A DNA stretch of 64,000 nucleotides from Tequatrovirus NIC06P2. Location of the stretch: the sequence record OZ035760.1. One strand, 5' to 3'. This document shows, piece by piece, positions 2,350 through 41,737 of this stretch. Position 1 is the first letter of the stretch. Each line of letters opens with the position of its first letter. Under the pieces are notes generated by a model, which was not told where the DNA came from, searched no databases, and was given only the letters and a program-made list of their open reading frames with translations. Both the position numbers and the translations under genes were made by a program.

Positions 2350-3674
2350 TTGATTTCCTCTAAATCTTTGGTGTATTCTGTAACTACATCAGTAGTTTTC
2401 CAATATTCGTTTTCTTCTTTTTTAGCTTTAGCTTCTTCTGCAAGTTTCTTTGCTTCGTCGGAAGTCATATGAAAAATATTCATTCCGACTAGTTTATCAA
2501 CATAAGAAGAATACATATCGATTTTCGAAAGTTCTTCGGTCAGTTCTTTACGAGTTTTACCCTGTACAACAATTTCACCTGAAATTACTTTCTTAATGAA
2601 ATGCGCCTTGGCAAAGGCTAAACGAAAAGCGGACTCAGTTTCTTTAATTTTGTTATCAATTCGTTTTTGGACATAAGTTTTACGAACTTCAACAAAGTCT
2701 TTAATTAAATCAACTACGTTATCGTAAACTTGTAGTTTTCCTTTCTCATTAATAACGGTAATATTCTGAGAACGACGCTCAATCAACCCGAAGTCTTTCA
2801 TAATTTTTGCATGGCGTTCTTCTTCGTTATCGCTCAAAGAATATTCTTTACGGAATTTAACTTTGAATCCAAAACCATGCTCACCACAAGCATCATCCCA
2901 TGTAATGAAGCCTTTATCTTCAAGTGGGTCTAAAATTTTACTCACGTAAGTTTCACGATCATACTTATACGGAATCTCAGTGATATGCATTTGAGTTCGT
3001 GAAGTAAACTTATATGTTCCACGAATTTCATATTGTCCATCAATTTCAACGACTTCACCACGAAATTCTGGGAATTCTACCTTCGGTTTAGTTACTTTCT
3101 TTCCTTGAAGAGCTTGCAGTACAGCTTTCTTGACAGAAGAAACACTATGAGGAAGAATGTAAGTTGCATAACCAGTTGCAATACCGGAAACGCCATTAAG
3201 AAGAACAGTAGGAATAACAGGCAAATAGAAAGCAGGCGGAATGTGTTCTTTATCTTGATGTACCGGAGCATATTCAGTATCTTTATATACGTTATAGAAA
3301 TTTTTACTTACACGAGCAAAAATATAACGACTTGCCGCTGCCTTTTGGACAGTACGAGAACCAAAGTTTCCTTGACCATCTAACAGAGGAAAATTATTAT
3401 TCCAAGTGTTAGCCATCAAAGCACCTGCGTCTTGCGCAGAGTTTTCACCATGATGATATCCAAGGTCCGCTACACCGCCTGCGATAGAAGCGAGTTTGTG
3501 AAACTTATCTTTATTTCCTCGTGCCAAATCAAGAGCTCGAGCAATAACAAATCGTTGAACTGGCTTAAATCCGTCAATCATATTTGGGATAGCACGATTT
3601 TCAACCGTGTACATAGCATAAGCCAATGCTTCATTATCAATGATACTTTTTAAATCGCGATTATTCAGTTGCAT
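2346..3674 (-). CDS. 52: DNA topoisomerase II medium subunit (GyrA-like)
   Basis: 442 aa, MQLNNRDLKSIIDNEALAYAMYTVENRAIPNMIDGFKPVQRFV; same length as T4 gp52 and characteristic GyrA N-terminal motif. Confidence 0.95.
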   Translation of the reverse strand: MQLNNRDLKSIIDNEALAYAMYTVENRAIPNMIDGFKPVQRFVIARALDLARGNKDKFHKLASIAGGVADLGYHHGENSAQDAGALMANTWNNNFPLLDGQGNFGSRTVQKAAASRYIFARVSKNFYNVYKDTEYAPVHQDKEHIPPAFYLPVIPTVLLNGVSGIATGYATYILPHSVSSVKKAVLQALQGKKVTKPKVEFPEFRGEVVEIDGQYEIRGTYKFTSRTQMHITEIPYKYDRETYVSKILDPLEDKGFITWDDACGEHGFGFKVKFRKEYSLSDNEEERHAKIMKDFGLIERRSQNITVINEKGKLQVYDNVVDLIKDFVEVRKTYVQKRIDNKIKETESAFRLAFAKAHFIKKVISGEIVVQGKTRKELTEELSKIDMYSSYVDKLVGMNIFHMTSDEAKKLAEEAKAKKEENEYWKTTDVVTEYTKDLEEIK

Positions 3675-23056: not shown

Positions 23057-23090
23057 AATAAACTCCTTTATTGTTTAATTACAGGTGTAT

Positions 23091-23927
23091 TTATAAACCA
23101 TTTTCAAATCTCTTTATCATGTTTATATAATTTTCGTCAGGATAACCTAGGCTAACTGCTAACTTTCTAAAATTGACATATTTAGGTTTGTTGTTATTAA
23201 TCCATAATTCTCTAAGCTCTTTTTCATAATTCCATTTAAGTTGATTTCTGCGTGCAATTTTGCTTAAAGTTTTTCCTTTAGCTTTTAAAGCTTTTTCAGA
23301 TGACTGTTTTAATTTTTGAATATTTAAAACTTCTTCTATAGATAAATTATTTTCCTTTGAATATCTTATGCAAAAATCTTTTACTACGGCTATTAGGCAA
23401 TTTTTGTGAGTACCTAAAATTTCTGGATTATTTTCTTCAACTAAAATTCCCCAATATCTTCGATAGCGAGGCATATCCCTTGAAATCCAGTCATTATACC
23501 AAAAATCAAAGTTGGAATACATGAAAGATTTTCTTTTGCGAAGAGTATCTTGGTTTATCCATTGCTCACGTTTATCAGCCCATAACTTAATAGTAAAGTC
23601 TTTCTCTAAGTCAGAAAGCTTCTTAAATTGCGAGCTATTTACTGAGGTCATTCTCTGGAATGCATTCAGCAATCCAAATCTTCCAGTTGAACATAAGAGA
23701 TAGTGAACATATATGTGTTGATATATTGGGAGATATACTCTATTCCAAGGATATGTTTTAAAATCACTGTACTCAGGAAATGCGCATTTAGGAAGTATAT
23801 GATGGGCTTCTGTTTTAGATTTAATGTGAGTGTTTAACTTATACTTATCTATAATTTTTAAATACTCATCTAAAAGTTCCCATTGCGGGAACTTTTCTTT
23901 AAGAGCAGATTTGAAATTAATATCCAT
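23091..23927 (-). CDS. putative HNH homing endonuclease (free-standing)
   Basis: HNH-like motif EAHHILPKCAFPEYSDFKTYPWNRVYLPIYQHIYVH; ATG lies within the last codons of gene 56; C-terminal GYPDENYINMIKRF module shared with ORF 59252..59971. Confidence 0.65.
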   Translation of the reverse strand: MDINFKSALKEKFPQWELLDEYLKIIDKYKLNTHIKSKTEAHHILPKCAFPEYSDFKTYPWNRVYLPIYQHIYVHYLLCSTGRFGLLNAFQRMTSVNSSQFKKLSDLEKDFTIKLWADKREQWINQDTLRKRKSFMYSNFDFWYNDWISRDMPRYRRYWGILVEENNPEILGTHKNCLIAVVKDFCIRYSKENNLSIEEVLNIQKLKQSSEKALKAKGKTLSKIARRNQLKWNYEKELRELWINNNKPKYVNFRKLAVSLGYPDENYINMIKRFENGL

Positions 23928-24435
23928 TATCTTGACGTTCAAAATTATGTTTGTTCTTCAGATAATAAAGTTTAAAGATTTCTTCTGCTGTAAGACCAAG
24001 ACCTTGGAACATGTTCAGAACAAAATGAAGAATATCAATCATTTCGAATTTAATTTCTAACTGATCCTGTGGAGACAAATCAGTAATCAAAGTTTCACGG
24101 CGTTCACCATGCTGCGACTTCCAAGGTTTCCATACAGCAGATGCATCTTTTTCGCCATTGCTCATACCGCCAAGAGAAGTTAGAAGTTCGCGGAATTCAT
24201 CATCAATATAATCTTTCTGATTACGCAGCCAATCAACAACTTCACCTGCGGTAGCCAAATCATCAGGATGACGGTTATATTCAGGTTTATCTTTAGCTAA
24301 ACGAATCTGTAAAGATTTCTGCATATCAAGCATTACCTGCAGCGGGTCTTTTTCATCACCGAGAATATCCCAATATTCATTTTGAGCTTTATCAGCGCCT
24401 TCGATCAGTTGACTACATTCGTTGAAATGTGGCAT
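23917..24435 (-). CDS. 56: dCTPase / dCTP pyrophosphatase
   Basis: 172 aa vs 171 in T4 gp56; MazG-like EExxE region; between soc and 61. Confidence 0.88.
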   Translation of the reverse strand: MPHFNECSQLIEGADKAQNEYWDILGDEKDPLQVMLDMQKSLQIRLAKDKPEYNRHPDDLATAGEVVDWLRNQKDYIDDEFRELLTSLGGMSNGEKDASAVWKPWKSQHGERRETLITDLSPQDQLEIKFEMIDILHFVLNMFQGLGLTAEEIFKLYYLKNKHNFERQDNGY

Positions 24436-29801: not shown

Positions 29802-30644
29802 TTAATCAACTGCTATTGGATGAATAGCATTAAACTTATGAAATGCTTCTGATTTTTCTTTACGAGAAACACACATGCGAAGAACCTTTAATGGCTCGTC
29901 TTCTTCACCCAACGATTTTCGTTTTTCAATATTAGAAGTTTTCCAACGAGCTTGCTCTGGAAACTCTCTATTGATTTGCTCAAGCGCTCTATTATGTTTA
30001 GAATTACTGCGAATTGAACTGCACCCGCCAGGAGCTTGTGCTTTTCCAGATACAACCAGATATTTGAACAAGGCCAAATGCGGATAACCTTGATTAATTA
30101 AATTGAGAAATGCATACATATCTTCGCATAAATCAATTTTTCCATACCCAATTTGTTCTGTGGTAAGTTTTCCGAGGTCATACCATGTATTCGTGAATCC
30201 GTATGAATTTTCACGATAATTACCCCAAGATGAAGTAATTTTAAAAATTGGTAGACGAGCATGACCGTGATAATACCCGCAATCCATGGCATCTTCAACG
30301 TATTGAATCAATTCATAGAACTGTTCACGAGTTAATTGATTAATTTTATCTACACATCGGCGATCATCTCTTTTTCGCATTGAACTCATACGAATAGTAG
30401 TATCATCGTCAATCATCCAGATTCGTTGACCTGCATACATATCAGTAATTGCTTTACGAGTACCGGCAATTCCGTTTACATCATCAGGAATAGTTACAAT
30501 TTTAGCTTTAGACCCATAGGCATCATAATAAGCTTTTTCTTCATGTTCACGTACTACGATATGAGGTTCATAATCAGTCGGAAACATATCAAGGGCAGAA
30601 ACTGCCCCTACACGTTGATAGCTCGGAATTACGAATTGAATCAT
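29802..30644 (-). CDS. GT-A fold glycosyltransferase, probably beta-glucosyl-HMC-alpha-glucosyltransferase of T2/T6 type
   Basis: 280 aa; VIPSYQR N-terminal motif and DDD (DxD) motif at IWMIDDDT; occupies the T4 beta-gt locus. Confidence 0.6.
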   Translation of the reverse strand: MIQFVIPSYQRVGAVSALDMFPTDYEPHIVVREHEEKAYYDAYGSKAKIVTIPDDVNGIAGTRKAITDMYAGQRIWMIDDDTTIRMSSMRKRDDRRCVDKINQLTREQFYELIQYVEDAMDCGYYHGHARLPIFKITSSWGNYRENSYGFTNTWYDLGKLTTEQIGYGKIDLCEDMYAFLNLINQGYPHLALFKYLVVSGKAQAPGGCSSIRSNSKHNRALEQINREFPEQARWKTSNIEKRKSLGEEDEPLKVLRMCVSRKEKSEAFHKFNAIHPIAVD

Positions 30645-31282
30645 TTAAGTGCCTTACATTTGTCAAAATGGTATCTTGTCATATTTGGCCCACGTCCTTT
30701 TAGTCCGCAATGCGGACATATTTTTTCTATCAAATTATGAGGTTTTCCTTTACGATTTTTAGACATCGTTTCTTTAATTATTTTAGCTTTTTCTACGCCA
30801 AAAATTTCTTCATAAGTTTTACCAGAATTTTCCTTGGCTCGATTTATAATTCCATATGCCTGCTCATTTTTACCATACATTGGATTACCTTCGCCTTTCA
30901 TTCTTTTAGAATGATCAGGACGCTTGATTCCACGAAAGGCATTTCCGCACTTATATCTTTCTTCTGGAGATAGTTTTTTACCGTACATTCCATTTAATTT
31001 GCCTGGAAAACTTCCTCCCCATGCTTCATTCTTTAAATTATATGAATCCGGACAATTAGCAGCATCTAAACAAGTTAAAATAATTTCTTCAACCTGTCTA
31101 AACATTGGTCCTTCATATAATATTTCTTTATTAAAGAATTTTATTCCATATTTCTTTTTAGCATGTTGCCAAACTACACCCGAACCATCATAATTCGGGT
31201 TGTGACCATCATGACTTCCTATATACCACTTTTTAGTTTTAGGATGTTTATACTTATAAACATGTGGCACATTTACTTCCAT
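30641..31282 (-). CDS. GIY-YIG homing endonuclease (Seg-like)
   Basis: VYKYKHPKTKKWYIGSHDG GIY-YIG motif; C-terminal zinc finger CPHCGLKGRGPNMTRYHFDKC; start overlaps stop of gene 42, stop overlaps start of glycosyltransferase. Confidence 0.7.
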   Translation of the reverse strand: MEVNVPHVYKYKHPKTKKWYIGSHDGHNPNYDGSGVVWQHAKKKYGIKFFNKEILYEGPMFRQVEEIILTCLDAANCPDSYNLKNEAWGGSFPGKLNGMYGKKLSPEERYKCGNAFRGIKRPDHSKRMKGEGNPMYGKNEQAYGIINRAKENSGKTYEEIFGVEKAKIIKETMSKNRKGKPHNLIEKICPHCGLKGRGPNMTRYHFDKCKALK

Positions 31283-33233: not shown

Positions 33234-35930
33234 TCAGCCAAACAGGAAGTCTAACGAAGCTTTTTCTTCATAGTCCATACCAGCCGATTCACACATGCCT
33301 GCAAGCGGTTTAACAAACGATTTTTGGAACAAAGTTGAGTGGTCAATCCAAGATAGTACATCAGAACGAATTTCTTTTGGAAGTTCTGTACCCGACGGCC
33401 AAGCAATGCACTTGTCACCAAATGGATTTCCTTCACGTAATGGAAGAACCATTACCTTATTTCCATCCAAAATTGGAGCTACACCTAGACCGCTAACAGC
33501 TCGACGATAAGTTAGCACACCACGAATATGGAACGGACATTTAAATCCTGGCCAACCTTTATCATCATATTTCGCTATATCGTTCGCAGTTTTTACTTCA
33601 GCAATAACTTTATAGTCAAGTTGACGATATTCTTTCTCGAAGTTCTTGTAATATTCTTGGACAGACTCTTCACCTTCCTGAAGAATACGACGAATACTTT
33701 CTTCGAGAGCTTCTTGCACTGCTTTTGGTGTTGAACTCTGCTGAGTTTCCATACCCATGATTTTTAGATGCGGTTCAGCAAATCGTTTATCTTCCATATC
33801 ATAAACGTTCAGAGCATAACGCTTTTTCGCTTTCCAAAATCCACCAACGCCCTTTGAACCAAGTGGAGGGCAAGAAATAGCTTCACGGTCCATATGCATC
33901 AGATGCTCGCGGTTATTCATATAATCACATAACTCACGATATGCAACATCAATCATAGGTTCCATCTTTTTCTTACCGAACTGATTCATGAATTCAACTA
34001 AATCGTTCTGCTCTTTGAATCGGTCAAGACCTACTTTTTCAATAACTTTATCTACGCAAACATATACCGAATCAGTATCACCTGCTGCAATGAAATCTTC
34101 GCCATTAGTTCCGCATACTTTATTCAGATATTCATTAATTTTACGAGCAATCCACTGAATACCAACTTGGCCGAAAATTGTGATAGCAGTAGCATTTCGC
34201 AAATCATAGTAACGGAAATGAATATTACCAAGAGCACCATAAAGACTGTTAATAAGAATTTTACGGTTCAGCTGATTTGTGTTAGCAAGTGTAGCTGCTT
34301 TTTCACATTCTTCGATCAGACTATTAAGAACAGATTCAGTGTAATTCGATAATTCATTTAAGAAATCATCACTGAACTTAACATATCGTTCAACTTCTGG
34401 TTTAGTTGAACAAGACCCCGCGCCTTTCATAATAATCTTTTTAATAGCTTCGGCATTCATTTCTTCAGCGAACATTTTCTTTTTCCAGTCTTTACGCTGG
34501 AAAAATACTTTAGCGATTTCCTTTGGAATGATACCTTCTTGATGCTTATCATACATCCATCCATTCGGAGAACAAGAATATTCATCACTCGGTTTAGGAG
34601 CTGTTCCTGCAATATATTCATGAATTGGATGAACTTTAAACTGCCCACGAATAGTCTCAGGACTAATGTTAACCTGACGAATAATGCTAGGATACAGAGA
34701 CGTCAAGTCAAAACTCATAATATATCGACGAGCAATTGGTTTAGGTTCAAACACAAATGCACCTGGAAAACTTTGTTTAACGTGCGAACCCTGTTGAGGA
34801 ATAACCTTATGTTCACCTTTCAATGAGTTAAAAATAATAGCATCCCAAGTTTTAATAGGACTCATTACACCAGAAAAAGGCATTTTAGCATAATAAGACA
34901 TACTTAAAACTAGATCGATAAACCCGCGAATTTTATCAATTGCTTGAACTGATTCTACGTCAATGATGTTATAACTAATGTATCGTTGATGATTAGTCTC
35001 ACGAAGTTTATTAATAGGACCGTCGTATGGTAATTTACCTTTTTTGGTTTCATGCTGAGCAACTGATTCCAAAGAGAATGACGGCAAATTAGTAAAAGCG
35101 AATTTCTTGTACAAATCTAAATAATCAAGAATAGATACGCCATCAATAGAATAAATTTCTTTGCTACCGTACATATTTTGGATAAGTTTAGATTTTACTC
35201 GACCGATTGGAGAGAAGCGTTTCATACTACGTTCACCGAGAACCATTTTAACGCGATTCATGATATACGGAACGTCAAATCCCTCAATATTCCAACCAGT
35301 AAAAATAGCAGGTCGTTTCTGTTCCCAGAGATTGATATATTCCATGAGCATATCACGCTCATTATCGAATGGCATATAAATTACTCGGTCAAGAATTTCT
35401 TGAGGAACTTCATCACCACCTTCACAGTCAAGCTTAGCAGCTAACTTTGCATCCCATTTTGATACTGAACCATACATTGAATTCAAAAGGTCGAAAACAT
35501 AAAAACGATCATCAATTGAATCGTAATGAGTGATAGCATCAATTTCATATTCAGCTTTCATTGGGTCAGGAAATTTATCACCAGTAACCTCAATGTCACA
35601 GTTAGCTACACGAACAAATTTTCGGTCATAAACAATTTCTGAACCGTATGTATCACTGATATAAGCGAGTTTAAAATCGTTCATACCGAGAGCTTCGAGA
35701 CCGATGTCTTCCATTCGTTTCATCCAATCTCGAGCATCTTTCATTGATGGAAATTTTTGAGGAGCGCAGTTTTTACCATAGATGTCTTTGTACTTTGACT
35801 CTTCCTTACAATGCCTAAACATAGTTGGAAGATATTCTACTTCACGAGTACGTTCCTTTCCGTTTTCATCAATATAACGTTCAACAATGTTATTTCCGAC
35901 TGTTTCGATAGAGATATAAAATTCTTTCAT
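33234..35930 (-). CDS. 43: DNA polymerase (family B)
   Basis: 898 aa as T4 gp43; MKEFYISIETVGNNIVERYIDENGKERTREVEYLPTMFRHCKEESKYKDIYGK. Confidence 0.97.
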   Translation of the reverse strand: MKEFYISIETVGNNIVERYIDENGKERTREVEYLPTMFRHCKEESKYKDIYGKNCAPQKFPSMKDARDWMKRMEDIGLEALGMNDFKLAYISDTYGSEIVYDRKFVRVANCDIEVTGDKFPDPMKAEYEIDAITHYDSIDDRFYVFDLLNSMYGSVSKWDAKLAAKLDCEGGDEVPQEILDRVIYMPFDNERDMLMEYINLWEQKRPAIFTGWNIEGFDVPYIMNRVKMVLGERSMKRFSPIGRVKSKLIQNMYGSKEIYSIDGVSILDYLDLYKKFAFTNLPSFSLESVAQHETKKGKLPYDGPINKLRETNHQRYISYNIIDVESVQAIDKIRGFIDLVLSMSYYAKMPFSGVMSPIKTWDAIIFNSLKGEHKVIPQQGSHVKQSFPGAFVFEPKPIARRYIMSFDLTSLYPSIIRQVNISPETIRGQFKVHPIHEYIAGTAPKPSDEYSCSPNGWMYDKHQEGIIPKEIAKVFFQRKDWKKKMFAEEMNAEAIKKIIMKGAGSCSTKPEVERYVKFSDDFLNELSNYTESVLNSLIEECEKAATLANTNQLNRKILINSLYGALGNIHFRYYDLRNATAITIFGQVGIQWIARKINEYLNKVCGTNGEDFIAAGDTDSVYVCVDKVIEKVGLDRFKEQNDLVEFMNQFGKKKMEPMIDVAYRELCDYMNNREHLMHMDREAISCPPLGSKGVGGFWKAKKRYALNVYDMEDKRFAEPHLKIMGMETQQSSTPKAVQEALEESIRRILQEGEESVQEYYKNFEKEYRQLDYKVIAEVKTANDIAKYDDKGWPGFKCPFHIRGVLTYRRAVSGLGVAPILDGNKVMVLPLREGNPFGDKCIAWPSGTELPKEIRSDVLSWIDHSTLFQKSFVKPLAGMCESAGMDYEEKASLDFLFG

Positions 35931-39095: not shown

Positions 39096-39287
39096 TTAGT
39101 CATAATAATCAGTAACAGTCCAAGCTTCATTTCTATTGGACATTATTTTTGTATATTCTGCTTTAAATGCATTCCTAAGCATAGATTCAGTAACTATATG
39201 CTCTTCATTAGAAAAATTATTTCTCAGAATATATCGTTTTATTTCAGGAATAGTTAATAGATGCTGTCCAGTTGAATATTCTGCCAC
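39096..39287 (-). CDS. hypothetical protein (63 aa)
   Basis: GTG start with GGAGGA Shine-Dalgarno. Confidence 0.45.
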   Translation of the reverse strand: MAEYSTGQHLLTIPEIKRYILRNNFSNEEHIVTESMLRNAFKAEYTKIMSNRNEAWTVTDYYD

Positions 39288-39338
39288 AGTTCCTCCGTAT
39301 AAATATGTTTATCACTCGCTGTATCAAAAGGATATGTT

Positions 39339-40052
39339 ATGAATTATAAACTAATTTACGAAAAGTTAATCTCTAATGCTAAATCTCGAAAACTTGATTG
39401 CTATACTGAATCTCATCACATTATACCACGCTGTTTAAATGGCAGCGATGATGCTTCAAACTTAGTAGATTTAACACCAGAAGAGCACTATGTAGCTCAT
39501 CAACTTTTAGTAAAAATTTATCCTTCTGAACCAAAATTAGTCTATGCTGCTAACATGATGACAGTTTCCACAAAATACGCTAAACGCAACAATAAAACTT
39601 TCGGTTGGATTCGTCGTAAACTCTGGGAAATAGAAAAGAATAAAGAATTCTCCCAGGAGACACGAAAGAAAATGTCTGATGCAGTAGCTAATAAAGCAAG
39701 ACTAACTTGTCCTCATTGCGGTAAGTCTGGATTAAGCGGGAATATGAATCGTTGGCATTTTGATAACTGCCCAAATCACCCTAATCCTAAAGTTAGACCA
39801 CCAATGTCTAAAGAACACAGAAATAATATCTCAAACGGGCTTAAAGCAATCGTTCTTGAAGAAACATCCTGCGAATTCTGCGGAATGATAGGCAAGAAAT
39901 GCGTTATCGCAGCGCATAGAAATTTCTGCAAGAAAAATCCAAATGGACGCAAGAAAACTGAAAAGACTGGTACTTGCGTCCATTGTGGTAAAGTTACCAC
40001 TTTCGGAAATTTATCAAGGTGGCATAATGATAACTGTAAGCACAAACATTAA
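39339..40052 (+). CDS. HNH homing endonuclease with three C-terminal zinc-finger-like repeats, plus strand
   Basis: HNH motif TESHHIIPRCLNGSDDASNLVDLTPEEHYVAHQ; repeats CPHCGKSGLSGNMNRWHFDNC, CEFCGMIGKKCVIAAHRNFC, CVHCGKVTTFGNLSRWHNDNC; opposite strand to all neighbours; stop overlaps stop of gene 46. Confidence 0.75.
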   Translation: MNYKLIYEKLISNAKSRKLDCYTESHHIIPRCLNGSDDASNLVDLTPEEHYVAHQLLVKIYPSEPKLVYAANMMTVSTKYAKRNNKTFGWIRRKLWEIEKNKEFSQETRKKMSDAVANKARLTCPHCGKSGLSGNMNRWHFDNCPNHPNPKVRPPMSKEHRNNISNGLKAIVLEETSCEFCGMIGKKCVIAAHRNFCKKNPNGRKKTEKTGTCVHCGKVTTFGNLSRWHNDNCKHKH

Positions 40053-41737
40053 TTAATAGTGGCAACACTAAATCTACCAACTTTTTCCATTTTAATATGC
40101 TGTCCATAATCCTGCGGATCATGGTCTTTATGCGAAATTATGAAGAAGTTGGTATCCTTCAAACCATCTAAAATTTTAGCTACATTTTTAATGCCTTCAG
40201 CATCAAATGCACCGTCATACACTTCATCAAGAAATAAACAACTTATTTTAACACCTGAAACTTTTTCAGCAATATCACGCCAAGTAAATAAAAGAGCAAT
40301 ATCAATTCGTGCTTTTTCACCTTGACTGAATGAAGCATAACTAAAATCTTCGCGACCACGGGATTTAATTGTCTCATTAAATTCTTCATCTAATGTAAAC
40401 ACATAATCCGCTTCCATTATTTTAAGATAATGGTTAATCTGCTTATTAAATAATGGAATGTACTTTTTAATAATAGCACCTTTAATACCAGAATCTTTGA
40501 GCATATCAGTCAAAATTCCTCGGTGGTATTTTTCCATTACTAAATTAGTTTTTGTCTTAACAATTTTATCAAGTTCTTCTTGAAGCAGTGCTATTTCATC
40601 AGCATGGTCAATAAACTCAGAAGATGCTTTTTCTATAGCCGCTTTAACCTTTTTAGCTTTATCTACTGCTGCGATCAGAGATTGCTTTTTATTGCGAATA
40701 TCATTTGCCAACGACTGTTGGGTTTTAATATTATCTCGGTATTCATCAACAAGAACTTTTAAATTATCACGGTGTGTTGAAAGCTGTTCAAACGAATGCG
40801 TACATTCAGAAACTTTATCTTTAATTTTAGAAACAACTTTATCACCGGAACTTAATTGTGACAAGCAGGTTGGACATAATCCACCTTCGTGATACATATT
40901 AATGACTTTATTATACGAGTCAATTTTTGATTTAATTAAAACTGCTTCTTGACCGATTTTATTAAATGCATCAGTCGGGTCTTCATCTAAAACAATATTA
41001 ACTAATCTTTCATTAGCTTCTTCTATTTCCGATTTTAGCATTCTAGCTTCTTTTGCCAAATCATCATACATATTTTGCAGACGAGTAAGGTTGTCACCCG
41101 TTAATTTTTTCTGGCGTTCAACGTTATCATTATATATTTTAATTTGTTGGATAATACTATCTTTTTTAACATCAAGCACTTGGTTTTGTGAATTTAATTC
41201 ACGTATTAGTGCTTTATTAAGCTTATCCATTTCAGCTAATGTTCCTACCTCGAGCAGGTCTTCCACAAGCTTTCTTCGTGCAGGGGTCGACAAACCCATG
41301 AAAGGGGTATACCCTGCTGTACCAAGGACAACAATCTGCTTGAAACTGGCATATGACATTCCGATAAGCTGTTCAAATTCTGCTTGGAAATCTTTACTGC
41401 TGGCAGATTCATTAAGACGTGTACCGTTAACGGTGATTTCAAAAACGTTCGGTTTTTGTCCTCTTTTGATATAGTACTTTTTCTCATCATATTCCATCCA
41501 CAGTTCAACTAAAAGTTCTTTCTTATTTGTGCTGTTTATTAATTGACCTTTCTTTACATCACGGAATGGCTTGCCAAAAAGCCCAAATGTGATGGCTTCT
41601 AACATAGTAGACTTACCACCGCCATTTCGTCCAGTAATAAGAGTTTTTTGAACCTTATCTAATTGAATGTCAATAGGATTTCCACCTACTGACATTATAT
41701 TTTGATACCTAACTCGGTTTAGTTTAAAATTCTTCAC
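40049..41737 (-). CDS. 46: recombination nuclease subunit (SbcC/Rad50-like)
   Basis: 562 aa vs 560 in T4; Walker A GRNGGGKST; long coiled-coil middle. Confidence 0.93.
   Translation of the reverse strand: MKNFKLNRVRYQNIMSVGGNPIDIQLDKVQKTLITGRNGGGKSTMLEAITFGLFGKPFRDVKKGQLINSTNKKELLVELWMEYDEKKYYIKRGQKPNVFEITVNGTRLNESASSKDFQAEFEQLIGMSYASFKQIVVLGTAGYTPFMGLSTPARRKLVEDLLEVGTLAEMDKLNKALIRELNSQNQVLDVKKDSIIQQIKIYNDNVERQKKLTGDNLTRLQNMYDDLAKEARMLKSEIEEANERLVNIVLDEDPTDAFNKIGQEAVLIKSKIDSYNKVINMYHEGGLCPTCLSQLSSGDKVVSKIKDKVSECTHSFEQLSTHRDNLKVLVDEYRDNIKTQQSLANDIRNKKQSLIAAVDKAKKVKAAIEKASSEFIDHADEIALLQEELDKIVKTKTNLVMEKYHRGILTDMLKDSGIKGAIIKKYIPLFNKQINHYLKIMEADYVFTLDEEFNETIKSRGREDFSYASFSQGEKARIDIALLFTWRDIAEKVSGVKISCLFLDEVYDGAFDAEGIKNVAKILDGLKDTNFFIISHKDHDPQDYGQHIKMEKVGRFSVATIN

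Follow-up and report, generated by a model that had tools for sequence, protein, structure and literature searches.

A putative late, free-standing Mob-type homing endonuclease gene and its linked gene 46 allele in Tequatrovirus

The locus and its annotation

At the junction of genes 45.2 and 46, phage T4 has no gene, only a 55-bp spacer. In the genome studied here the same junction is occupied by an open reading frame running against its neighbours, hereafter HEG, which raises the questions of what this gene encodes and, if it is a homing endonuclease gene, which sequence its product attacks. The window, meaning the whole 64-kb (64,000-nucleotide) stretch of DNA that was analysed, is a segment of the genome of a T4-like phage of the genus Tequatrovirus, and the region is 98-99% identical to those of fFiEco06, ESH35, RB51 and RB68. 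HEG (39339..40052, plus strand; equivalent to RB32ORF054w and RB51ORF057) begins with ATG and encodes 237 amino acids with no internal stops. It is the one member of the 51 open reading frames of at least 150 amino acids in the window that lies on the plus strand, among minus-strand genes (gp44, gp45, rpbA, 45.2, gp46, 46.1, 46.2 and gp47).

An initial reading of the DNA from its letters and reading frames, here called the sequence-only reading, had described a plus-strand gene antisense to its neighbours, inserted between the rpbA region and gene 46 at a position where T4 was said to lack a gene, and with a stop codon overlapping that of gene 46. The description is accurate on each of these points. 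The immediate left neighbour is gene 45.2 (39096..39287, minus strand), with rpbA beyond it. On the right, HEG converges on gene 46 (40049..41737, minus strand), which encodes a Rad50/SbcC-like recombination nuclease subunit, and the two stops share the tetranucleotide TTAA at 40049-40052: the TAA of HEG occupies 40050-40052 and the stop of gene 46, TTA on the plus strand, 40049-40051. Both flanking reading frames are complete beside HEG. The gp46 of the window has 94.5% protein identity to that of T4 and is 562 amino acids long, as against 560 in T4.

HEG is already known as an annotated Mob-like homing endonuclease gene, and is an ordinary member of its class. RB32ORF054w was described in the 2006 annotation of RB32 (DQ904452) as a 'putative site-specific intron-like DNA endonuclease, similar to mobB', and a homing endonuclease is annotated at the same site in RB51, RB68, RB33 and many recent genomes. 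The copies in RB32, RB51, RB33, RB68, fFiEco06, Aplg8 and Ozark represent one and the same gene and share its location. Compared with other Tequatrovirus carriers, HEG has 96.7-99.4% identity in DNA and 98-100% in protein; in one sample of carriers the REP2 protein was 100% identical and the remainder reached 98.7% or more. In the RB51 subtype, to which the window belongs, the HEG protein ends in CKHKH and gp46 in SVATIN; in the RB32 subtype the corresponding ends are CKYKPS and SLAKIS. A literature search returned no paper on HEG, nor is an element at 45.2/46 included in the reviews on mobile elements of T4 that it found.

That the gene is a free-standing HNH homing endonuclease gene, as the sequence-only reading proposed, is supported by a match to a homing endonuclease family (PHROG 655), by similarity to MobB and MobE, by an intact HNH domain, by the existence of empty sites and by a diverged flank. 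From these comparisons, HEG is likely to be a free-standing T4 Mob (HNH) homing endonuclease gene, probably expressed late, whose product would nick or cut DNA of competing phages, probably at the 3' end of gene 46.

Nuclease domain and zinc fingers

By homology to MobB and MobE, residues 1-100 (39339..39638, plus strand) constitute a Mob-type N-terminal HNH nuclease domain, within which the HNH core was placed at residues 24-54 (39408-39500, plus strand) from its conserved residues and a profile alignment. The HNH motif noticed in the sequence-only reading is genuine: residues 26-54 read HHIIPRCLNGSDDASNLVDLTPEEHYVAH, and the catalytic residues are conserved in 30 homologues, with H26, H27, P30, G35, N41, L45, H50 and H54 invariant. 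The protein matches PHROG 655, 'homing endonuclease', with an E value of 1.5e-68. The BLASTP comparison with Mob endonucleases that had been suggested as a check gave 44% identity over 126 aa with T4 MobB (residues 1-125; E 7e-30) and 36% over 141 aa with MobE (E 3e-23), both within the N-terminal domain; the C-terminal regions of the HEG protein and of MobB and MobE could not be aligned by BLASTP. A profile brings the HH...N...H core into residue-by-residue register with HNH motifs of solved structures, namely those of EcoKMcrA, a group II intron maturase and Cas8-HNH.

More general domain models respond weakly. The protein scores 17.0 bits against a Pfam HNH cut-off of 21.4, and two relatives tested (P0025 and P0031) also fall below this cut-off; in NCBIfam the sole match is sub-threshold, to the HNH region of IscB (23 bits against 175). 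When the PDB was searched by sequence, using the protein or a profile of 30 sequences, the matches to HNH motifs and zinc fingers were only marginal and no chain of I-HmuI was among them; fold searches with the whole AlphaFold2 model returned nothing informative. The model itself predicts a strand-strand-helix arrangement for the HNH region, at residues 24-27, 42-45 and 47-60, with pLDDT above 90. An HNH domain shared at the N-terminus and a C-terminal domain specific to the protein together place the predicted enzyme in the T4 Mob type. HEG is also free-standing, with its own start codon, Shine-Dalgarno sequence and promoter motif, and lies outside any intron or intein.

Three predicted zinc fingers follow. 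The first, C124-x2-C127-x12-H140-x3-C144 (CPHCGKSGLSGNMNRWHFDNC; 39708..39770, plus strand), has ligands that are invariant or nearly invariant; the second, C178-x2-C181-x11-H193-x3-C197 (39870..39929, plus strand), is conserved in all full-length orthologues; and in the third, C213-x2-C216-x12-H229-x3-C233 (CVHCGKVTTFGNLSRWHNDNC; 39975..40037, plus strand), the four ligands are invariant in 30 homologues. The sequence-only reading had counted the repeats correctly, but the motif it gave, CxxC(x11-13)C, has to be replaced: the ligands are Cys-x2-Cys-x11/12-His-x3-Cys, with the last cysteine 15-16 residues after the CxxC. Repeat 2 also contains an extra cysteine, Cys188, which is not conserved.

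These fingers are related to those of I-TevIII. Finger 1 matches the second finger in that enzyme at 50% identity, finger 2 aligns with its first finger, and fingers 2 and 3 together show 38% identity over 63 aa to its C-terminal zinc-finger DNA-binding domain (E 1e-8 for T4 I-TevIII, 8e-8 for the full-length protein of RB3 type). Residues 165-236 additionally match PADLOC 'HEase' and PHROGs 12324 and 27406. In the AlphaFold2 model, made with 30 homologues (mean pLDDT 86.6), a beta-beta-alpha unit is predicted for each finger, that of finger 1 comprising strands at 121-123 and 130-132 and a helix at 133-143; helices are also predicted at two NUMOD3-like segments, with finger 1 located between them. 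The segment at residues 103-115 misses the Pfam NUMOD3 threshold (12.6 bits against 20.4), and more distant relatives have NUMOD3 repeats instead of fingers and pass this model (P0031, 64.6 bits). Such swapping of fingers and NUMOD3 is the usual module shuffling in enzymes of this kind. The fingers of HEG can be assigned to the CCHC, I-TevIII type and are predicted to bind zinc and DNA, finger 2 with its x11 spacing being one residue below the published CX2CX12-13HX3C range. In the I-TevIII of RB3, the two motifs of this form are zinc-binding, DNA binding depends on them, and they lie within a dimerising region that yields a double-strand break (PMC1865063).

HEG therefore has to be set beside more than one known system. 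It is like MobB and MobE in having a homologous HNH domain of about 100 residues, in being free-standing between conserved genes and in carrying a family-specific C-terminal domain; it is unlike them in its genomic site and in the C-terminal region, which is unrelated and in HEG contains the three CCHC fingers. Furthermore, HEG is antisense to its neighbours with a late-promoter motif of its own, whereas mobE lacks its own promoter and is expressed by co-transcription with the genes upstream of it (PMC2790892). The likeness to the I-TevIII of RB3 lies in a homologous C-terminal pair of CX2CX11-13HX3C fingers, but that enzyme is encoded within the nrdB intron and has two fingers, whereas HEG is free-standing and has three, and the two HNH domains show no similarity by BLASTP. 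The overall plan is that of I-HmuI, encoded in an intron of SPO1, in which an N-terminal HNH nicking domain is joined to an extended modular DNA-binding tail. Weak NUMOD3 matches at residues 103-115 of HEG add to the likeness, while I-HmuI has a helix-turn-helix module and lacks zinc fingers.

Expression signals

A match to the T4 late-promoter consensus, TATAAATA, is found 33 nt before the HEG start codon (39298..39305, plus strand), and direct reading of the sequence reveals a Shine-Dalgarno-like AAAGGA 6 nt before the ATG (39327..39332, plus strand). Exact copies of TATAAATA number two in the 64 kb, against an expectation of 9.9 +/- 3.0. The motif is also present upstream of the orthologues of phages MHG19 and ST0, with a weaker TAAATA variant in EBPL and KpCCP1, and an AAGGA/CAGGA element is conserved upstream of the HEG orthologues. 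As the motif follows the T4 late consensus and is conserved in orthologues, expression of HEG is likely to be late and self-driven. A scan of the plus strand for sigma-70 promoters and terminators found nothing relevant, and no terminator is predicted after HEG.

Structures that sequester the ribosome binding site are known from other T4 endonuclease genes. An RNA switch of this kind was considered for HEG and rejected: the 5' UTRs of four orthologues, conserved in sequence, fold no better than shuffled versions (z -0.7 for the 5' UTR of HEG).

The cassette and the empty site

The extent of the insertion was established by pairwise and multiple alignment with T4, T2, RB6, RB14, PP01, PST and Ec_MI-02. 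A cassette of approximately 783 bp (39282..40064) replaces about 69 bp of T4, comprising the 45.2/46 spacer and the terminal codons of both flanking genes: in the alignment with T4 the window is identical along 45.2 as far as the second codon of that gene, and homology resumes in the last codons of gene 46. Both neighbours are slightly altered by the cassette: gp46 gains two residues, and the 5' end of 45.2 is specific to the cassette, reading GTG-GCA-GAA, with one extra Ala codon, where T4 has ATG-GAA. The same additional codon is seen in Mosigvirus carriers, in which 45.2 starts ATG-GCG-GAG, as against ATG-GAG at empty sites. Lost along with the T4 spacer is a strong hairpin (-20.5 kcal/mol, z -5.9), whose place is taken in the window by the cassette. 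Base composition was tried as an indicator of foreign origin and discarded; the GC content of the cassette, 36.4% against 34.4% for the window, does not mark it out.

Among approximately 500 Tequatrovirus records matching the flanks, a count that takes in RefSeq and GenBank duplicates, there are 58-59 carriers and about 440 empty sites, the latter all of one uniform length; carriers thus make up about 12% of records. In Mosigvirus there are 14 carriers, and the other records have empty sites. Comparison of the 45.2-46 junction with T4, T2 and other relatives, which the sequence-only reading had recommended, delimits the insertion and reveals that empty-site alleles are the majority. This majority, and the conservation of the HNH residues in alignment, are the two points on which that reading could have failed, and on both it stands.

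Orthologues and selection

Full-length orthologues, at the same site and in the same orientation, exist in at least four other T4-like lineages, with a common layout in which 45.2 is followed by HEG running rightward and gene 46 running leftward, their ends overlapping. They are represented by Yersinia phage MHG19, an unclassified member of the Tevenvirinae (63% identity in HEG, 65% in gp46), ST0 of Mosigvirus (58% and 82%), EBPL of Pseudotevenvirus (46% and 44%) and KpCCP1 of Slopekvirus (42% and 45%). Across genera, the divergence of HEG roughly parallels that of gp46. The HEG protein is under purifying selection, since all 12 orthologues examined are intact, with dN/dS values of 0.02-0.17; within Tequatrovirus dN/dS is 0.03-0.14, at dS of up to 0.15. 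No decayed copies occur among the 12. The way in which HEG tracks gp46, together with this lack of decayed copies, is explained by long vertical residence no less readily than by repeated cycles of invasion and decay. Such a pattern of vertical residence is partly unlike the classical cycle of homing endonuclease genes.

These data bear on whether the gene is still functional. It could be imagined that HEG is an inactive relic, a homing endonuclease gene in decay like the truncated I-TevIII gene of T4, given that the activity of MobE could not be demonstrated in vitro (PMC2790892) and that many of the mob genes of T4 lack a demonstrated activity (PMC2988022). All copies examined are nevertheless full length, their catalytic residues and zinc ligands are invariant, and dN/dS is held at 0.02-0.17 with dS reaching 0.15 within the genus, which makes decay highly improbable.

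The same selection could be taken as a sign of domestication, with HEG retained as a nuclease of benefit to the phage and active homing now minor or absent. The benefit might lie in the exclusion of markers from co-infecting relatives, or in late antisense transcription into gene 46, which could occur as no plus-strand terminator is predicted after HEG. The absence of decayed copies among the 12 orthologues, the occupation of one site in one orientation in five or more lineages, where HEG has diverged about as far as gp46, and the conserved late promoter motif belonging to the gene are all compatible with such a role. Against this, the low share of carriers, about 12% of records in Tequatrovirus and, with 14 carriers, a minority in Mosigvirus, implies that HEG is dispensable, and the empty sites are clean and uniform. 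Moreover, an active homing endonuclease would exclude markers in any case, so that this explanation overlaps with the main one. Domestication in place of homing is accordingly regarded as improbable.

The diverged 3' end of gene 46

Beside the cassette, the last 78 codons of gene 46 (40066..40300, minus strand) form a diverged block linked to carriage of HEG, which is a candidate for both the target and the immunity region. The block runs from the Walker B and D-loop motifs to the H-loop and C-terminus of the Rad50-like ATPase, with the motifs themselves kept. In a comparison of six carriers with seven non-carriers of Tequatrovirus, 20 fixed differences were found outside the cassette, all of them at 40068-40240, within the last ~190 nt of gene 46; there were none on the 45.2 side or further into gene 46, and outside the block polymorphisms are common to carriers and non-carriers.

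The block exists as three deep haplotypes, termed carrier, T4-type and T2-type, the latter two both being found among HEG-less phages. Between haplotypes, pS is 0.40-0.54 and pN 0.14-0.15, compared with 0.07-0.11 and 0.008-0.009 in the other 478 codons; synonymous divergence is therefore 4-7 times, and non-synonymous divergence about 17 times, higher than in the rest of the gene. Every Tequatrovirus carrier has the carrier-type block. Across the whole phage collection this block is at least 95% identical in 58 records and 93.6% identical in KMB22, with all other records at 80.4% or below, and so a search for an outside donor found no non-carrier record above 80.4% except KMB22. The latter is a Tequatrovirus with an empty site and a recombinant block, T4-type to about position 40100 and carrier-type beyond. 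In Mosigvirus, one block haplotype is present in all three carriers compared and also in ZQ3, which has an empty site.

No single carrier-specific substitution common to the Tequatrovirus and Mosigvirus carriers was found that would pin down the target. The TTGAAGATG segment (~40090-40098) is altered in six of six carriers compared from Tequatrovirus and two of three from Mosigvirus, with ESCO47 keeping it. The right flank near the cassette in Mosigvirus has one fixed substitution, a synonymous change in a His codon that is absent in Tequatrovirus. Since KMB22 and ZQ3 make the association of block and HEG non-exclusive, and since two deep haplotypes occur in HEG-less phages, the block may be variable for reasons unrelated to HEG.

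Candidate target and mechanism

For MobE, both mobility and nicking are proven: it nicks nrdB, a conserved gene beside it, some 120 nt within the gene, and nrdB polymorphisms at this target separate carriers from non-carriers (PMC2790892). The pattern at gene 46 matches that of MobE, in which a conserved neighbour is nicked and carriers differ at that place (PMC2790892), and by this analogy the 3' end of gene 46 is probably the target of HEG.

The same enzyme might instead recognise the empty 45.2/46 spacer, including the inverted repeat of its hairpin. The gene 46 block would then be a bystander, either a co-conversion tract left by an old donor or a region that varies independently. Intron-encoded enzymes recognise their insertion site, and the cassette removes the whole spacer, so that insertion alone would confer immunity. 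The spacer also shows no differences among seven Tequatrovirus loci with empty sites, the block is separated from HEG in KMB22 and ZQ3, and two of its deep haplotypes already exist among HEG-less phages. Yet Tequatrovirus and Mosigvirus have no conserved spacer sequence in common, although HEG is at the same site in both, as well as in MHG19, EBPL and KpCCP1, and all carriers examined, in both genera, have one particular block haplotype. Furthermore, the free-standing MobE of T4 cuts inside a conserved neighbour gene (PMC2790892). A spacer target is hence considered possible but rather doubtful.

With gene 46 as the preferred target, the enzyme would combine an HNH nuclease domain, one or two NUMOD3-like helices and three CCHC fingers. 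Its gene would probably be transcribed late in infection only, from the TATAAATA promoter, antisense to neighbours of the early and middle classes. In a mixed infection with a HEG-less relative, the protein would bind the DNA of the competitor through its fingers and either nick it, like MobE, or cut both strands as a dimer, like I-TevIII; the likely site is in the final ~250 bp of gene 46. With the carrier genome as template, repair would then insert the cassette at the empty 45.2/46 site and would co-copy the adjacent carrier-specific block of gene 46. The diverged block of the carrier would resist its own enzyme, and would thereby serve as the immunity determinant as well as being the co-converted flank.

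Significance

The impact on annotation is small, HEG being a recognised Mob-like gene that T4 happens to lack. What the analysis adds are the exact boundaries of the cassette, the identification of the fingers as CCHC and of I-TevIII type, the late-promoter motif, the fidelity to one site across genera together with purifying selection, the linked deep allele at the 3' end of gene 46, and the natural recombinants. HEG joins a Mob nuclease domain, a type for which in vivo data come from MobE only, to the biochemically tractable finger domain of I-TevIII. As natural carriers (RB32 and RB51), empty sites (T4 and T2) and the recombinant KMB22 are all available, mapping of the target and tests of immunity can start directly.

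For the biology of these phages, the block in the C-terminus of the gp46 ATPase represents another case of a homing endonuclease tied to sharp local divergence between alleles of an essential phage gene. A further-reading interpretation, in which HEG is an old and site-faithful resident of the 45.2/46 junction in at least five T4-like lineages, maintained by selection as a late weapon against the Rad50-like gene 46 of co-infecting relatives, is speculative and on present comparisons unlikely. Were it true, the three block haplotypes would record a prolonged arms race between nuclease and target, and KMB22 and ZQ3 would be naturally immune 'escapees'.

A hairpin and a promoter-like match within the endonuclease gene

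The plus-strand Mob-type HNH homing endonuclease gene (HEG, 39339-40052) between genes 45.2 and 46 contains a perfect inverted repeat of 12 bp with a 19-nt loop (39942-39984), positioned between the segments encoding the second and third zinc fingers. The repeat is predicted to fold strongly when read from either strand (minus strand, -23.0 kcal/mol, z = -4.9; plus strand, -21.6 kcal/mol, z = -5.5) and is unchanged in five further HEG-carrying phages. Because UUUGGAUUUUUCUU follows the hairpin on the minus-strand RNA, this structure could terminate gene 46 transcripts or mark them for processing; an internal terminator is present in mobE (PMC2790892). In either role the hairpin could substitute for the one found in the HEG-free 45.2/46 spacer of T4 (locus L008, 2880-2945, equivalent to T4 33241-33306), which is likewise strong (-20.5 kcal/mol, z = -5.9). 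At the matching position in Mosigvirus (ZQ3, locus L024, around 1625-1675), the empty spacer contains the inverted repeat GATGTGGT...ACCACATC, which differs from the T4 hairpin in sequence. Between T4 and Mosigvirus the structure of the spacer is conserved, while its sequence is not.

Antisense within the HEG, on the minus strand, lies a match to the MotA-box and -10 pattern of middle promoters, TGCTTTAAGCCCGTTTGAGATATTAT (39823-39848), oriented towards 45.2, rpbA and 45. This pattern is enriched in the window, where 17 matches occur (11 of them on the minus strand) and 4.8 were expected. The match within the HEG is retained in RB32 and F13076, and is not retained in orthologues from other genera. 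It could represent an embedded promoter serving the downstream genes, as has been described for segG, mobB and mobC (T4 review).

Variation at the junction with gene 46

Two subtypes of carrier can be distinguished by the 3' end of the HEG and the C-terminus of gp46 (window 40040-40066; 3640-3670 in the compared locus L003). In the RB51 type (seven records), to which the window belongs, the endonuclease ends ...CKHKH and gp46 ends ...SVATIN, with the genes overlapping by 4 nt; in the RB32 type the respective ends are ...CKYKPS and ...SLAKIS, and the overlap is 8 nt. The diverged 3' block of gene 46 linked to the HEG is also found alongside natural empty sites, in KMB22 (OR539217.1; locus L027, 1925-2260) and ZQ3 (L024, 1596-1935). 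In KMB22, the switch from T4-type to carrier-type sequence occurs near the equivalent of window 40100-40120. These two phages may have arisen by recombination or by losing the HEG, and their empty sites may be immune.

Two public records of this region have labels that look odd: PV654520.1, named 'Pseudomonas phage vB_PSGBLB0006', has this Tequatrovirus region at 97.6% identity, and NC_054913.1 (F2) is filed as a Tequatrovirus despite a region 98% identical to that of Mosigvirus ST0.

Other homing endonuclease genes

Two further Mob-like HNH homing endonuclease ORFs are present on the minus strand of the window. One, of 213 aa (30641-31282; PHROG 314), is flanked by the beta-glucosyl-HMC-alpha-glucosyltransferase gene and gene 42, and has a C-terminal CCHC finger resembling those of the HEG protein. 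The stop codon of the other, of 283 aa (23091-23942; PHROG 655, E = 1e-33), is overlapped by the sole copy of TATAAATA in the window (23088-23095, minus strand) besides that upstream of the HEG.

Some relatives have other homing endonuclease genes at the 46/46.1 and 45/rpbA junctions. Such neighbouring-junction genes are found in Aplg8 (L004, 5353-6207), PP01 (L012, 4639-5493), F13076 (L006, 1414-2301) and T2 (L009, 4639-5491), where the element at 46/46.1 appears to be split between two ORFs; F2 has another upstream of gene 46 (L022, 4090-4201). Elements of this kind have a hot spot in the 45-47 region.
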